Shown here in pieces: positions 2,441-13,805 of a stretch of 13,805 nucleotides of DNA; positions within the stretch are counted from its first letter, which is position 1; each line of letters starts with the position of its first letter. The position numbers and the translations under genes were made by a program. This stretch comes from Octopus sinensis (taxonomy: Eukaryota). Under the pieces are notes generated by a model that made no database searches, was not told the origin of the DNA, and saw only the letters and a list, made by a program, of their open reading frames with translations. The stretch is taken from NCBI RefSeq assembly GCF_006345805.1, contig NW_021825954.1:1-13805 (forward strand). The letters run 5' to 3'.

Positions 2441-2466
2441 CATATATATATACACTTACATATATA
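2299..2466. repeat. Imperfect (TA)n microsatellite
   Basis: Direct reading. Confidence 0.95.
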
Positions 2467-2467
2467 A

Positions 2468-3189
2468 GAGGAATAACCACCAAGGTGGATTCCTATTATG
2501 CTAGAAGAAGACGCTATATCGTCTTACCACGAAGAATGTGTTCTCAAGAAATTTCAGTTAACACTTGGTGCTTATTCCTCATTTATATGTATGTAATAAA
2601 ACTTCTTAATCTTCTGATTTTTAAAGTATTCTTGGCCACTGTTTTAAATTGATATTCTTTAATTAATATTAATTTCTACCCTCATTATTTAATTTTTAAA
2701 TAACCATGTTCTCTAACCGGTAAATCTGCTGCGGAAATTCATTAACTGCAGAGTTCTATCCGGCTTCAGCGCACCAAAATTAAGACATTTGAAATATACC
2801 CTCAAATACAATTGGCAAAACTTTATACATGTTCTCTCTCGGGAAAACATCTTATTTCTAGTTCTGTGAATTACGTTTTCCATGCGACGACTGCACTGAA
2901 GAGCTGCGGACATTTATATTCGTAAATGTTAACAGCGAAATGTATGTTGGTTATTGTCAAATTTGCTCGTTTTACATTCTGGCTTTTGCTGAAATTTCTT
3001 GAGAACACACTCTTCGTGGTAAAACGATTCACCGGCTTCTTCTAGTATATTAGGAATCCACCTTGGTGGTTATTCCTCATATATATGTATGTAATATAAC
3101 TTCTTAATCTTCGGATTTTTTAAGTATGCTAGGCTACTGTTTGAAATTGATATTAATTAATTAATATTAATTTCTACCCTCATTATTTA
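2468..3189 (+). mobile_element. Non-coding element with 90-bp inverted repeats, 128-bp direct repeats and a decayed hammerhead (Penelope-like pLTR / retrozyme-like)
   Basis: Inverted repeat 2468-2557 vs 2989-3078 (8 mismatches in 90 by hand). Direct repeat 2564-2691 vs 3062-3189 (period 498). HHR-like core at 2896-2948. Flanked by TA runs. Confidence 0.7.
2884..2957 (+). ncRNA. Decayed type I hammerhead ribozyme motif
   Basis: CTGAAGA (2896-2902), stem II GCTG/CAGC extended by ACATTTA/TAAATGT, then GAAA (2937-2940) and TGTATGTT. The latter is interpretable as CpG-decayed CGTACGTC (palindromic stem III plus GUC site). Stem I is weak. Confidence 0.55.
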
Positions 3190-3202
3190 GCTCATATATA
3201 TA

Positions 3203-3637
3203 GGCGCAGGAGTGGCTGTGTATAGGAGCAGGAGTGGCTGTGTGGTAAGTAGCTTGCTAACCAACCACATGGTTCCGGGTTCAGTCCCACTGCGTAGCAT
3301 CTTGGGCAAGTGTCTTCTGCTATAGCCCCGGGCCGACCAATGCCTTGTGAGTGGATTGTGTAGACGGAAACTGAAAGAAGCCCGTCGTATATATATGTAT
3401 ATATATATATATATATGTGTGTGGTATGTGTTTGTTGTGTCTGTGTTTGTCGCCCTAGCATTGCTTGACAACCGATGCTGGTGTGCTTACGTCCCCGTCA
3501 CTTAGCGGTTCGGCAAAGAGACCGATAGAATAAGTACTGGGCTTACAAAGAATAAGTCCCGGGTCGATTTGCTCGACTAAAGGCGGTGCTCCAGCATGGC
3601 CACAGTCAAAATGACTGAAACAAGTAAAAGAAAAAGA

Positions 3638-3700: not shown

Positions 3701-4660
3701 AACTGTCGTATGTCCAAATTTGGCCAAATTCATTTTTTCAATATTTAATTTTCCTTGCAATAACCGGTTCTTTTGCTCAAGCATCTTTTGGTCAAGTTCT
3801 TTTGCTCAAGCATCTTTTGGCCAAGTTCTTTTGCTCAAGCATCTTTTGGTCAAGTTCTTTTGCTCAAGCATCTTTTGGTCAAGTTCTTTTGCTCAAGCAT
3901 CTTTTGGCCAAGTTCTTTTGCTCAAGCATCTTTTGGTCAAGTTCTTTTGCTCAAGCATCTTTTGGTCAAGTTCTTTTGCTCAAGCATCTTTTGGTCAAGT
4001 TCTTTTGCTCAAGCATCTTTTGGTCAAGTTCTTTTGCTCAAGCATCTTTTGGCCAACTTCTTTTGCTCAAGCATCTTTTGGTCAAGTTCTTTTGCTCAAG
4101 CATCTTTTGGTCAAGTTCTTTTGCTCAAGCATCTTTTGGTCAAGTTCTTTTGCTCAAGCATCTTTTGGCCAAGTTCTTTTGCTCAAGCATCTTTTGGTCA
4201 AGTTCTTTTGCTCAAGCATCTTTTGGTCAAGTTCTTTTGCTCAAGCATCTTTTGGTCAAGTTCTTTTGCTCAAGCATCTTTTGGTCAAGTTCTTTTGCTC
4301 AAGCATCTTTTGGCCAAGTTCTTTTGCTCAAGCATCTTTTGGTCAAGTTCTTTTGCTCAAGCATCTTTTGGTCAAGTTCTTTCGGTCAAGCATCATTGCA
4401 TCTCCAGCTTCCTCAGATGAAAATTCTGAAAGTGTTGTACAAAGTTTTTGCATTTTTGAAAAGTGTAGTAAGCCTTACATACGACAGTTTTGAAAAAAAC
4501 TTTTTTGACTGAAAATATCATACATGCATGGACTTACGATTTTATGCACCCAACAAAGTATTATTTTTGAGCTGAAACTGTTGATAACGTAAATAGAAAT
4601 GGAATGGTGAAACTATTTTTTCGTTTTCTGAAAAAGCAACGTTTTGGACTTACGACAGTT
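3701..4660. mobile_element. Putative non-autonomous DNA transposon bounded by 18-bp (sub)terminal inverted repeats
   Basis: AACTGTCGTATGTCCAAA (3701-3718) vs TTTGGACTTACGACAGTT (4643-4660) is a 17/18 inverted match. Extra motif copies lie at 4477-4489 and 4529-4539. Confidence 0.6.
3767..4394. repeat. 29-bp minisatellite, 21 full units plus a partial unit (GTTCTTTTGCTCAAGCATCTTTTGGTCAA)
   Basis: Direct reading. Units are near-identical, with a GGCC variant in units 2, 5, 10, 14 and 19. Confidence 0.97.
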
Positions 4661-5018: not shown

Positions 5019-5059
5019 TAATCTCTAATAAATCACAAGAAAGGAACAGTGATAGCTTA

Positions 5060-6062
5060 CTCGATGAGTGACATAGAGATGGTCTGGAAGAAGGCAATAA
5101 AACTAATGGTGGTATGACAGATGGGCAAAAGGAAATCTACGACAGAATAAAGGCAAGGCTACAGGAAAACGATAGCGACACTTTTTGCAACCTTAAAATG
5201 GTGGATCGGTGGAAATTGAAGCAAGAAATGAAAAATGTGAATGAAATTCTGAAATACATCAGAACAAACAACATCACAGAAACAAATAATTTGATCCAGG
5301 CTGCAAGTATTGTTGTAGCAGAAAATGTGGGTGTTAATGTCAAGAAAAAGAAATATAATGGGTGTGACAAAAGAAAAAAAGAATACAGGTGGGGTTAGAT
5401 ATGCTCTCAAAGGACAGTTATGTGTTGGACCGAAAAGAGGAGGGAGAGCTTAAAACCGAACAAAAGGACAGGGTACTGAACAAGAAATATGATATTGAAA
5501 GAAAGGGCCTGAAAATAGTAGCGGAGGAAATGAAAAAGCGCCTCGTTGCATGGAAAGCAAAAATAGTAAGATGCGACCAAATAATGAAGGGTTATCACCA
5601 GAGTAGGTTATTCAGAGTAGATCAGAATAGATTCTACAAAGAAATAAGTGGAGAGTGTACAGACGAAAAGTTGATACCAGATAACATTGAAAGTCAAAGG
5701 TTTGGGAGTTACATTTGGAGCAAAACAAGGAGCACAAGAAGGATGCTGAATGGTTGCAAGAACTGAAACAAACAGTAGTCTGTCTAAAAGGGAAGTGAAG
5801 GATATCAGGAGAAAAATGGGCAACTGGAAGGCCTCGGGACCAGATGGATTTCAAGGCTACTGTTTCAAAAGATTTGGTGAATGTCATGCACGAATAGCTG
5901 CACAACTCAACATCTTGTTAAATGCCGACCAAGTAACCAGAGTGGTTGACAATCCGTAGGTCAGTGCTGTGCTTTAAATACATCGGGAAAGGCAATACGG
6001 TAGACAATTACAGGTCGATATCCTGCTTGCCACTTATGTGGAAATTATTGACTGGAGTCAAT
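5060..6062 (+). mobile_element. Decayed non-LTR retrotransposon ORF fragment (pre-RT region plus RT domains 0-1), R4/Dong-like
   Basis: Consecutive frameshifted ORFs give ITETNNLIQAASIVVAENVG, QSRLFRVDQNRFYKEI, MGNWKASGPDGFQGY.FKRF and [23 protein letters not shown] (the KAPGPDG and NYRPISCL RT motifs). Truncated before YxDD. Clade assignment is from remembered motif similarity. Confidence 0.85.
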
Positions 6063-6176
6063 GTACGGACATCTGAAAAAAAAAAAGAAAATACTCCGGA
6101 TGGTGCTCGAAAAACAAGGGTTGTTACCTTAGTTCACTGGTAGAGAACAGCTGGCACGGTGCAAAGGCAATAAATA

Positions 6177-6289: not shown

Positions 6290-6296
6290 ATAAATA

Positions 6297-6332
6297 TTAA
6301 TAATAATAATAGTAATAATAATAATAATAATG

Positions 6333-6392
<60 letters not shown>

Positions 6393-6410
6393 GTAGTAGT
6401 AGTAGTAATA
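6297..6410. repeat. (TAA)n/(TAG)n microsatellite
   Basis: Direct reading. Confidence 0.95.
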
Positions 6411-6755
6411 ACTACAACGATAATAGTAATCGCAACAATAAATAGTGTAACAATAATATATACTTGGAAAATGGAAAAGATATTTCTCTCTATATGATGA
6501 AATGGAAATATCTATATCGTATGTACTACTTTTCCCAGAGAGATATAATAACATTTAAAATAACCTGATCTTCTTCAGAAATATCATTATATAGAAATAT
6601 CGAACAGGCAGGCAATACGTATACCCGTGATAAATAGCAGCTTGCGAAAGAAGAGGGTTATCCGCTTTAAAGCACGGTATCGCTGCTGTTGTTGTTATCA
6701 TTGTTATGCATTTCATCGCTAAAACTCATCATACTTGGAGATAACAGGGGAATAA

Positions 6756-7753: not shown

Positions 7754-7773
7754 GAGCGTAGGCTCGAAACGTC
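7754..7773 (+). ncRNA. 3' half of a minimal hammerhead ribozyme motif (5' core lost in (GA)n)
   Basis: GAGC-GTAG-GCTC hairpin directly followed by GAAAC-GTC, a palindromic ACGT stem III of the dimeric minimal HHR type. CTGANGA is absent. Confidence 0.35.
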
Positions 7774-7864
7774 AAAGCCTTGCATTTTTCCGAGCGTCAA
7801 ATTAATACACCTTTCTTGTCCCCTCATCTGTTCTGCATATGTCAAACATACATATATATATATA

Positions 7865-8228
7865 GGCGCTGGAGTGGCTGTGTGGTAAGTAGCTTGCTTA
7901 CCAACTGCACGGTTCCGGGTTCAGTCGCACTGCGTGGCACCTTGGGCAAGTGTCTTCTACTATAGCCTGGAGCCGACTAAAGCCTTGTGAGTGGATTTGG
8001 TAGACTGAAACTGAAAGAAGTTCGTCGTATATATGTATATATATATATATGTATGTATGTGTATATATGTATATGTTTGTATGTCTATGTTTCTCCCCCC
8101 CAACATCGCTCGACAAACGACGCTGGTGTGTTTACGTCCCCGTAACATAGCGGTTCGGCAAAAGAGACCGATAGAATAAGTACTAGGCTTACAAAGAATA
8201 AGTCCTGGGGTCGCTTTGTCCGATTAAA
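7865..8228 (+). mobile_element. tRNA-derived SINE, family A copy 4 (3' end lost or diverged)
   Basis: Colinear with copy 3 up to ..GGGGTCGCTTTGTCCGATTAAA. Preceded by (TA)n. Confidence 0.92.
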
Positions 8229-8812: not shown

Positions 8813-8864
8813 AGGGTTAGGATTATGGTTAGGATTAGGATTAGTGTTAAAGTTATGATCAGGG
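8813..8864 (+). repeat. Degenerate TTAGGG-like hexamer array
   Basis: GGG TTAGGA TTATGG TTAGGA TTAGGA TTAGTG TTAAAG TTATGA TCAGGG. Confidence 0.6.
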
Positions 8865-10300: not shown

Positions 10301-10434
10301 AAAGTTCAGCAAAAATTTAGATTCGAATGAATATGGTACATAAGTTAGATGAACCAGAATTTTGAATGGTGTTATCCATAAAAATCCATGCGGTGATTAT
10401 AATCAAAATAAGCAACAAAATAACTTTGGTAATT

Positions 10435-10520
10435 TGGTATGATCGTTTCGTACTACATTATTTTATTTAATGTTGTAAGCATTACAACAGTTTTAAAATG
10501 CTGAGCACTCATCAGCCATT
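10435..10520 (-). ncRNA. Type I hammerhead ribozyme motif (minus strand)
   Basis: Minus strand: aaTGG-CTGATGA-GTGCT...AGTAC-GAAAC-GATC-ATA-CCA. Stem II is intact and extended by the TGTTGTAA/TTACAACA hairpin. There is a G>A change at the cleavage triplet. Confidence 0.75.
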
Positions 10521-10787
10521 ATTAGAGGTTTTCCATTAATACGTAATTTTCATATCAAGTGATAACCTTATATAGAAGACAGATATAGAGACAAAGATGT
10601 GGATTTAAATTTAAGAACATTTAAGGTAGTGGAGTTTATCAACTGACTGACTAATAGTCAGTTGCTCTGAACTACTATAATGTTCTGAGAAGAATGGACA
10701 AATGAAAGGGGACAACAAAGATTGTCTATTTATAGAAATAGGGGTGAAATAGATGTCAAAGTTCCATATAAAGAAAAACCTCTATCA

Positions 10788-10873
10788 ATGGCTGATGACT
10801 GCACAGTATTTTAAAACTGTTGTAATGCTTACAACATTTAATAAAATGATGTAGTACGAAACGATCGTACCAT
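10788..10873 (+). ncRNA. Type I hammerhead ribozyme motif (plus strand)
   Basis: ATGG-CTGATGA (10792-10798)-cTGCA...TGTAGTAC-GAAAC (10858-10862)-GATC-GTA-CCAT. Stem I, the palindromic stem III and the GUA site are intact. The first stem II pair is C-C. Confidence 0.78.
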
Positions 10874-11007
10874 GTTACCAAAGTTATTCTTGTTGCTTAT
10901 TTTGATAATATATATATATATGTACATATATTCATACACACACATACATACACACATATATATATATAGTTGGAATTTACAAACAATGGTATATAAATAT
11001 ATATACA

Positions 11008-12965: not shown

Positions 12966-13805
12966 GTACAGGACATAAAAAAAAACGTTGAACACAATGA
13001 GAAACGAAAACATAAAAACAAAAACATAGAAACGAACTTTTTTTCATACAACGAAAAAAAAACAAGGAATTTTCCCCTTCTTCAGTTGTTCCTGTTTCAT
13101 CTACTCTGCGTTCGAATGTAAGAACAAGACGCGACTTGTTGAAATGGTCCTTCCCGCAAAGTAAATTAAATAAAATTCGGGATTTTTTGCGGAGGGTGAA
13201 AGTGGTAACAAGAACAGGACTGTAAGAACAATACAAAATTAAAAACAGTAAAATACAGAACAATTAGAACAAATGAGTAAAAACAAATGATGAAGGATGT
13301 TAAGCCAAGACGACGGGAAAATATTTTGAACGTTTAATGAGACAAGTTATGAAAGAGACAGGTTAAGCTGGTCTGGTCTTTGTGAAGGTAGCAGTCGAAA
13401 ATATGGCTTCCCTCTGATCACGTGTCAGTGACGAGAGAGTCGAGAAGGAGGAGGAGGGGGAAGAAGATAGAGGGAACGGTGAAGGAGAGAGGAGAAAAAT
13501 AAGGAAGGGCGAGAGAAAACTAGAAAGGGTGAAGAACAAGAGAGGGAGAGAGATAGACAGAAAAGAAATAGTAAAGAAGTGTGCTTTCCTACTTGTCTGT
13601 GCTTTGGTGTGTGTATGTGTGTGGTGTGTGTGGACACCCTCGCGTGTGGAGGACTAGGGTTTTATGAGTAAGTACACATTAATAAGCTTACGTCTTGCGT
13701 TTTCACGTTCCAGTGTGTGTGTGTGAAGTGTGCATGTACGTGTGTGTGTGCTGGTGAAAATTAGCACCCTCTATCTATTTAGTGACGACTGTACTTGTTG
13801 CTTTT

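Follow-up and report, generated by a model that had tools for sequence, protein, structure and literature searches.

A stretch of 741 bp at positions 2451-3191 of the window, by which we mean the whole 13,805 nt of Octopus sinensis contig NW_021825954.1 that were analysed, is likely one insertion into a (TA)n tract. By whatever route it arose, it is very probably an insertion of the Penelope-like element (PLE) type. We propose that it represents the single insertion of a short non-autonomous PLE, copied from a linear RNA that carried two copies of the 3' repeat, and we give this explanation a probability of roughly one in two. The PLE reverse transcriptase/GIY-YIG protein was probably supplied from elsewhere. 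The locus combines several features of EN+ PLEs, namely a partial tandem of pseudo-LTRs (pLTRs), an inverted 5'-truncated copy, a type I hammerhead core in sense orientation and a (TA)n target. This architecture is already published for PLEs; its boundaries and layout are drawn here from a single locus.

The direct repeat consists of a downstream copy (3062-3189, + strand) and an upstream copy (2564-2691, + strand), which are identical at 117 of 128 positions without gaps (E 2e-48). The two are separated by exactly 498 bp, as had been claimed from the sequence alone, and offsets of 496, 497, 499 and 500 bp leave only 35-44 of the 128 positions identical. The upstream copy is a 5'-truncated pLTR composed of the end of segment A (2989-3078) and segment B (to 3189). 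EN+ PLEs optionally have a terminal tail of 30-40 bp; both copies here end together, but the final two bases of the insertion, which complete its 3' end at 3062-3191, are an unmatched GC (3190-3191), whereas AT follows the upstream copy. The inverted copy of A, which was first placed at 2468-2557 opposite 2989-3078, is real (82/90 identical) but longer than described. Its full ungapped extent is 2454-2557 (- strand), the reverse complement of 2989-3092 (+ strand), with 94 of 104 positions identical (E 6e-37 for this longer match), and a gapped alignment carries it to 2445, opposite 3098. Leftward of 2454, pairwise comparison gave only a gappy, low-complexity alignment to inverted B, and 2451-2453 are assigned to no part. 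The arm takes in the start of B, has a 31-nt overlap with the direct copy next to it, shows AT microhomology at its outer end and leaves about 97 nt at the 3' end uncopied. At the inversion junction, sequence comparison leaves a spacer of 6 nt (2558-2563) within a GTTAAC palindrome. The repeat alignments show the source region of the arm to be A plus the start of B, and this region contains a hairpin at 3045-3084 (z -2.2, 5/200 shuffles) with its loop at 3062-3065; the first base of the upstream direct copy (2564) corresponds to the first base of that loop. A 32-nt A-T palindrome lies inside the downstream repeat at 3143-3174. The locus amounts to 626/498 = 1.26 units, and no tandem array of the 498-bp unit was found in the window.

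The left flank is a (TA)n-rich tract (2299-2452; a TRF period-2 array of 76 copies), the likely target. Among exact direct matches that are anchored at the two ends, the longest is the 11-mer TCATATATATA, found at 2440-2450 and 3192-3202 (both + strand), three bases (left) and two bases (right) outside the repeat ends; the right copy adjoins a SINE-like repeat. The sequence-only reading had B run directly into TA; instead, GC and then TCATATATATA follow. Because the 11-mer is of low complexity, with three occurrences in the window, it is a candidate target-site duplication only. Three of the 81 (AT)-runs in the window start with TC, two of them being these candidates. The direct pair has diverged at 11 of 128 positions and the inverted pair at 8 of 90 or 10 of 104 (about 9%; Fisher p 1.0 and 0.82, with intervals as wide as 5-17%), and the 31-nt three-way overlap is star-like, with 2, 2 and 0 private changes. 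Equal divergence and a star-like overlap are expected if all the pieces arose at once. Together with the candidate target duplication, they fit a single insertion of 741 bp.

The equal divergence of the two pairs is difficult to reconcile with a MITE having inverted repeats of about 90-104 bp, accompanied by an unrelated local duplication and a chance hammerhead-like motif. Arms of 90-104 bp around some 430 bp of ORF-free sequence in a TA-rich setting do suit a MITE. However, the 90-bp arm is flanked by AA/AT and the 104-bp arm by AC/AA, not by TA; the ends of slightly longer arms fall in TA-rich sequence and are uninformative. The particular case put forward at the outset, of 90-bp terminal repeats with a TA duplication, fails on these flanks and because the right arm sits about 100 bp in from the end of the insertion. 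The best duplication is 100 bp farther out than that arm and includes B, and the hammerhead core with its stem II arises in just 19-39 of 5000 shuffles. We therefore regard the MITE account as highly improbable.

For PLE insertions, (TA)n targets and partial tandems next to which a 5'-truncated copy lies inverted are described as standard (PMC8557442). In Adineta PLEs, two direct pLTRs with an overlapping, shorter inverted pLTR and target-site duplications of 8-10 bp have been reported, as have palindromes at the inversion junctions and unrelated sequence carried between the pLTRs in trans (PMC3846280). The octopus locus resembles the EN+ elements Pen2a_Av and Pen3a_Av of Adineta vaga in its direct repeats and shorter overlapping inverted copy (PMC3846280), with a low-complexity 11-bp candidate set against their 8-10 bp duplications. 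Its (TA)n target and its hammerhead, which precedes the 3' end by a few hundred bases, are shared with Hydra-clade PLEs as reported in PMC8557442; by eye, the 3' end shows no match to that of Hydra-1_Obim. Unlike EN+ PLEs, the octopus element has no reverse transcriptase/GIY-YIG ORF and a body of about 200-300 nt rather than 2-3 kb, its upstream repeat lacks a hammerhead, and its inverted arm falls short of the 3' end. The locus works like a PLE insertion. It is not an autonomous PLE, since no reverse transcriptase/GIY-YIG ORF was found, and it is not classed as a retrozyme.

The type I hammerhead-like motif (2886-2958, + strand), identified by descriptor and folding, has the core CTGAAGA (2896-2902) and GAAA (2937-2940), on the strand of the direct copies. 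Stem II, GCTG/CAGC (2903-2906/2933-2936), has 4 bp with a pair probability of 0.85-0.86 (z -2.4, 4/200 shuffles) and closes a 34-nt arm (2903-2936) with a 9-bp inner hairpin. The outer stem I has 5 bp (2886-2890/2954-2958) and the inner stem I has 2-3 bp. Scanned over both strands of the whole window, a CTGANGA-stem II-GAAA descriptor has a single strict match, 2896-2940. When the element was dinucleotide-shuffled, such a match turned up in 19 of 5000 cases with Watson-Crick pairing and in 39 of 5000 when G-U pairs were allowed; counts of 0/200 and, for a "tight" form, 0/5000 were obtained with motif-derived patterns and are not counted as evidence. The hammerhead-like core placed earlier within 2896-2948 is thus borne out for 2896-2940, but it is a single hammerhead lying outside the duplicated 128 nt. 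Rfam scans covering the whole window and each of the two hammerhead regions returned no hammerhead family, only microsatellite-driven miRNA noise. This null result carries little weight, since they also passed over the better-formed hammerhead pair at 10.4-10.9 kb.

The motif resembles the minimal type I hammerheads reported for metazoan PLEs (PMC4209133; PMC6765202) in its CUGANGA...GAAA core and G10.1-C11.1 pair, its long stem II and short stem I, and a palindromic stem III that would pair only as a dimer. It differs from them in that positions 9 and 10.1 are not separated by an unpaired base and a competing helix is present. The shape of stems I and II looks minimal, not canonical, the canonical type I hammerhead having a loop 1-loop 2 contact.

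Eight registers of stems I and III were compared (U16.1 up to 2954), two of which are plausible. In the minimal register, GAAA is followed by TG-T-A with a cut predicted after 2944 (GUA), and A-U, C-G and G-U pairs close stem I on the core. In the register of the sequence-only reading, an 8-nt wobble palindrome goes with a cut predicted after 2948 (GUU), and stem I is closed by an A-G mismatch. For a family consensus at 2937-2950, the minimal register would predict GAAACGTA then TGT and the other register GAAACGTACGT then C/T. The minimal register needs 0-1 change and lies one C-to-T change away from GAAACGTA; the consensus predicted earlier, GAAACGTACGTC, requires three CG-to-TG changes on one strand besides the A-G mismatch, and we consider it the less likely. 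Arm A keeps all 3 CpGs in both of its copies, and CpG decay is modest, with TG/CA at 13 of 61 CpG sites versus 90 of 1125 other mismatches across four non-independent repeat pairs, which argues against three CpG decays on one strand. The inner-helix probability is 0.24-0.38 in the minimal register versus 0.03 in the other. Fold energies over 2884-2960 are -16.0 versus -15.6 kcal/mol for the two registers, and the lowest-energy fold, at -17.6 kcal/mol, is not a hammerhead. The 8-mer would form a stem III self-duplex at -1.2 kcal/mol versus +2.6 kcal/mol for the 4-mer, with G-U wobbles present. This full self-pairing favours the 8-nt register, as does the 8-nt palindrome of the window's other hammerhead, and long stem III palindromes with GUU sites are reported for Hydra-clade hammerheads (PMC8557442). 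On balance, the models incline us towards the minimal register. The ribozyme of this copy is predicted to be weak or dead, and cleavage would require a dimer. Having a single hammerhead, the copy would set free neither a monomer nor a circle of its own.

The unique body (2692-2885, + strand) has no recognisable ORF according to the frame list, Pfam and homology searches, and the longest frame wholly within the element spans 66 codons from stop to stop. Pfam gave no coding match for five element frames (best E 0.007, below the cut-off) and nothing above the cut-off for 19 of the at least 93 window frames listed. A word-index protein search with the hammerhead-spanning frame found no match, and the best ESM Atlas value for frame 2717-2866, 0.77, is at chance level. 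A phmmer search of 1.84 billion proteins with frame 2746-2922 found no reverse transcriptase or GIY-YIG domain; its 2 matches, an LRR-like protein and a chitin-binding repeat protein, are sums of weak repeats and were rejected. The linked PLE reverse transcriptase/GIY-YIG ORF suggested as a check on the first interpretation is hence absent from the element frames as far as Pfam and homology searches reach. An exact 24-mer of the element has 0 matches in bacterial and archaeal genomes, and comparison with the three other PLE-like remnants in the window revealed no likeness (best E 0.41).

The locus may instead be what 5' truncation left of the 3' end of an autonomous, full-length PLE, possibly of the Hydra-like clade, which we consider possible but less probable than the short element. 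Here, cDNA synthesis would stop after 500 nt, resume on a second RNA, of which it would copy 128 nt from the 3' end, and then add the inverted piece, so that the 498-bp spacing would be merely a truncation length and not a unit. Heavy 5' truncation and partial tandems are given as the rule for PLEs in PMC8557442, whose Hydra table has (TA)n targets and hammerheads about 90-430 nt before the 3' end; the distance here is 296 nt. A stop-interrupted sense frame from 2730, just before the hammerhead, is the body's best match to two short Hydra-clade endonuclease-end motifs that were read by eye from consensus sequences. All six scorings place the best motif there, and its score was reached or beaten by 30, 626, 235, 55, 100 and 36 of 1500 shuffles, giving a nominal p of 0.02-0.07 in four of the six. 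However, within the window the match comes no higher than 6th-8th, two of the scorings show nothing unusual in it, and it keeps, by eye, 2 of 9 invariant motif residues, too few for a decay of about 4.5% per copy. The 5' 300 nt of the unit have no unusual structure (z -1.4; -0.2), but searches with three frames recovered no PLE protein, the two phmmer matches being repeat artefacts. A further point against truncation is an A-U hairpin of 7-8 bp (2685-2703, + strand, -1.5 kcal/mol) that spans the junction of B and the unique body. Since this hairpin is completed by the first bases of the body, it hints that B natively precedes the body. A comparable hairpin occurs at 3 of 289 AT-matched positions; this hairpin and the one at the break point were both picked out after the fact.

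The junction hairpin also bears on how the short element may have been copied. From the ribozyme to the 3' end of the insertion is a distance of about 245 nt, and the point in the upstream repeat that corresponds to this end falls on the 5' arm of the hairpin. In a PLE of Anolis, the protein is reported to cut and extend both strands at AT-rich DNA, reverse transcription to start inside the RNA at a stem-loop downstream of the hammerhead, and hammerhead cleavage not to be required (PMC11167929). We propose that the endonuclease would nick both strands of the (TA)n tract about 11 bp apart, and that one end would serve as primer for reverse transcription from an internal site, on the 5' side of the stem-loop and about 245 nt 3' of the ribozyme. 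The cDNA would pass the uncleaved hammerhead and the body of about 200 nt, enter the upstream pLTR and stop after 128 nt of it, in the loop of the hairpin. The other TA-rich target end could then anneal to an A-U stretch 31-37 nt 3' of the stop and copy 104 nt in the opposite orientation (twin priming), reaching 73 nt further 5', and repair would join both cDNAs through 6 nt. The inversion thus looks like twin priming at a hairpin stall. Twin priming has been described for L1 (PMC2246262), where the outer end of the inverted segment is near the inner end of the direct cDNA, as here, and both target ends prime, as they would here. Unlike L1, the locus has no poly(A) tail and no L1 sequence, and the comparison is one of mode of working only. 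The final GC, where the upstream copy has AT, counts against this explanation, as does a comparison with the neighbouring PLE-like element: both arms of that element end at about 10398/10910, whereas the inverted arm here falls about 97 nt short. In the published picture of PLEs, repeats flank the whole unit, which implies arms with a common end point.

In another scenario, a longer head-to-head palindrome of two pLTRs was inserted first, and asymmetric central deletions took out its hammerheads afterwards. Head-to-head inverted pLTRs with a junction palindrome are described as typical in PMC3846280, and the junction GTTAAC is present also in stem II, the spacer 7-mer 2557-2563 being identical to 2928-2934. 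A match of just 7 nt is within chance, and two deletions plus the outer loss of about 97 nt would be needed beside an intact candidate target duplication. We give this scenario very little credence. Both 7-mers are followed by GAAAT on the inverted reading, which may be chance or a short template jump.

The sequence-only reading proposed that reverse transcription ran more than once around a circular or tandem template of about 498 nt. The tandem half of this proposal is the likelier; the circular half is unsupported. The inferred template comprises about 1.4 units and begins 41-45 nt after the upstream cut position. All duplicated bases lie downstream of the predicted cut, save the chance-level 7-mer in the spacer. 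Therefore, a linear transcript from an upstream pLTR is enough, and a circle is not needed. More than one round on a hammerhead-processed circular RNA of about 498 nt, as in a non-LTR retrozyme, is accordingly unlikely in our view. Circular PLE templates have been proposed (PMC4209133), retrozymes are reported to derive from pLTRs (bioRxiv 10.64898/2026.07.22.740005), and stem II, which lies upstream of the cut, contains the spacer 7-mer. The unit also folds better than its shuffles, both as a linear molecule (z -4.2, 0/100) and as a circle (z -3.8 versus -1.4 to +2.7 in 11 control windows). However, the fold signal comes from 2945-3189 (z -3.3), whereas 2692-2990 has a z of -1.4. Both this and an equally strong signal on the opposite strand (z -3.6) point to local palindromes and provide no argument for a circle. 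In the one PLE studied in vitro, the main template was uncleaved RNA (PMC11167929).

The octopus unit resembles metazoan non-LTR retrozymes in being non-coding, low in G+C (about 33-36%), a few hundred bases long with a hammerhead, and likely PLE-derived (PMC7229834). Its 498 bp compare with 150-450 bp (PMC7229834) or 51-972 bp (bioRxiv 10.64898/2026.07.22.740005) in retrozymes. Non-LTR retrozymes are described as arrays with canonical ribozymes and demonstrated circles (PMC7229834). In contrast, the octopus locus has one ribozyme in 1.26 units, no array in the window and a 5' inversion, and the ribozyme resembles the minimal PLE type. The definition of an active non-LTR retrozyme calls for two consecutive units with complete hammerheads (bioRxiv 10.64898/2026.07.22.740005), and these are lacking at the locus, which is non-coding with G+C under the 45-50% limit. 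Of the sequence-only reading, the Penelope-like part is supported by the tandem, the inversion, the hammerhead and the (TA)n tract, and copying more than once round a circle is not supported.

As it stands, the locus adds another PLE-derived fragment to those of a repeat-rich animal genome, and its value is that of a compact footprint. If other copies share the junction of B and the unique body, a non-autonomous PLE of about 500 nt would define minimal cis-signals (start hairpin, ribozyme and 3' palindromes). A shared junction could also separate linear-tandem from circular templates. The footprint could reveal whether twin priming is the source of PLE 5' inversions, whose origin is listed as unresolved in PMC8557442. 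A bolder possibility is a family of gene-less Penelope parasites of about 500 nt, with a minimal dimer-dependent hammerhead, ribozyme-made circular RNA and twin-primed insertion starting at the junction hairpin. We think such a family improbable; if true, it would provide a direct genomic test of the 2014 circle-template idea for PLEs. A literature search, with few subscription journals and no Repbase in its scope, found nothing on octopus hammerhead mini-elements or on PLE twin priming, and a 9-nt motif gave one unrelated match, a Naiad 5' end, in the accessible part of the PMC8557442 supplement.

Three other PLE-like remnants lie in the window. The element at 10398-10910 is unrelated to the insertion and has the usual arrangement, with a hammerhead in both inverted arms and a common outer end point. 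Its hammerheads (CTGATGA at 10792, + strand, and 10515, - strand) have an 8-nt palindromic stem III and a GUA site; stem II of the + copy is damaged, and the - copy has a CpG-type change in stem III. The segment 12960-13430 (- strand) is likely a decayed PLE 3' end with the half core CTGAAGA at 13085, the GAAA half being lost, and the sequence before it resembles what we take to be a frameshifted GIY-YIG C-terminus. At 7755-7840, an (AG)n run is immediately followed by GAAACGTC (at 7766), which corresponds to the 3' half of a minimal hammerhead, and this is likely a heavily truncated PLE end.

Four copies (363-780, 1140-1597 on the - strand, 3203-3635 and 7860-8225) are present of a SINE-like repeat that has a (TA)n/(TG)n block in its interior. 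ARAGORN found no tRNA in these copies, and a literature search with the SINE motif gave no match. The head of the copy at 3203 is duplicated, as a 22-bp unit present twice at 3199-3243. A fragment at 781-1135, between two tail-to-tail SINE ends (159-nt arms, 96%), reads like the start of what is presumably a frameshifted mariner transposase. A broken LINE-like coding remnant (5050-6140) lies upstream of a (TAA)n tract (6293-6411) and has a motif that we assume to be of the Dong/R4 reverse transcriptase type; its frames gave no Pfam match, and a word-index protein search with two of them found no homologue. The SINE-like and Dong/R4-like repeats are, we presume, octopus-like. Many Penelope-like, SINE and Dong-R4 families are reported for octopus genomes (PMC13282606). 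The window also contains a 29-bp minisatellite at 3767-4394 (21.7 copies, 97%) and a short degenerate TTAGGG-like run at 8813-8849.
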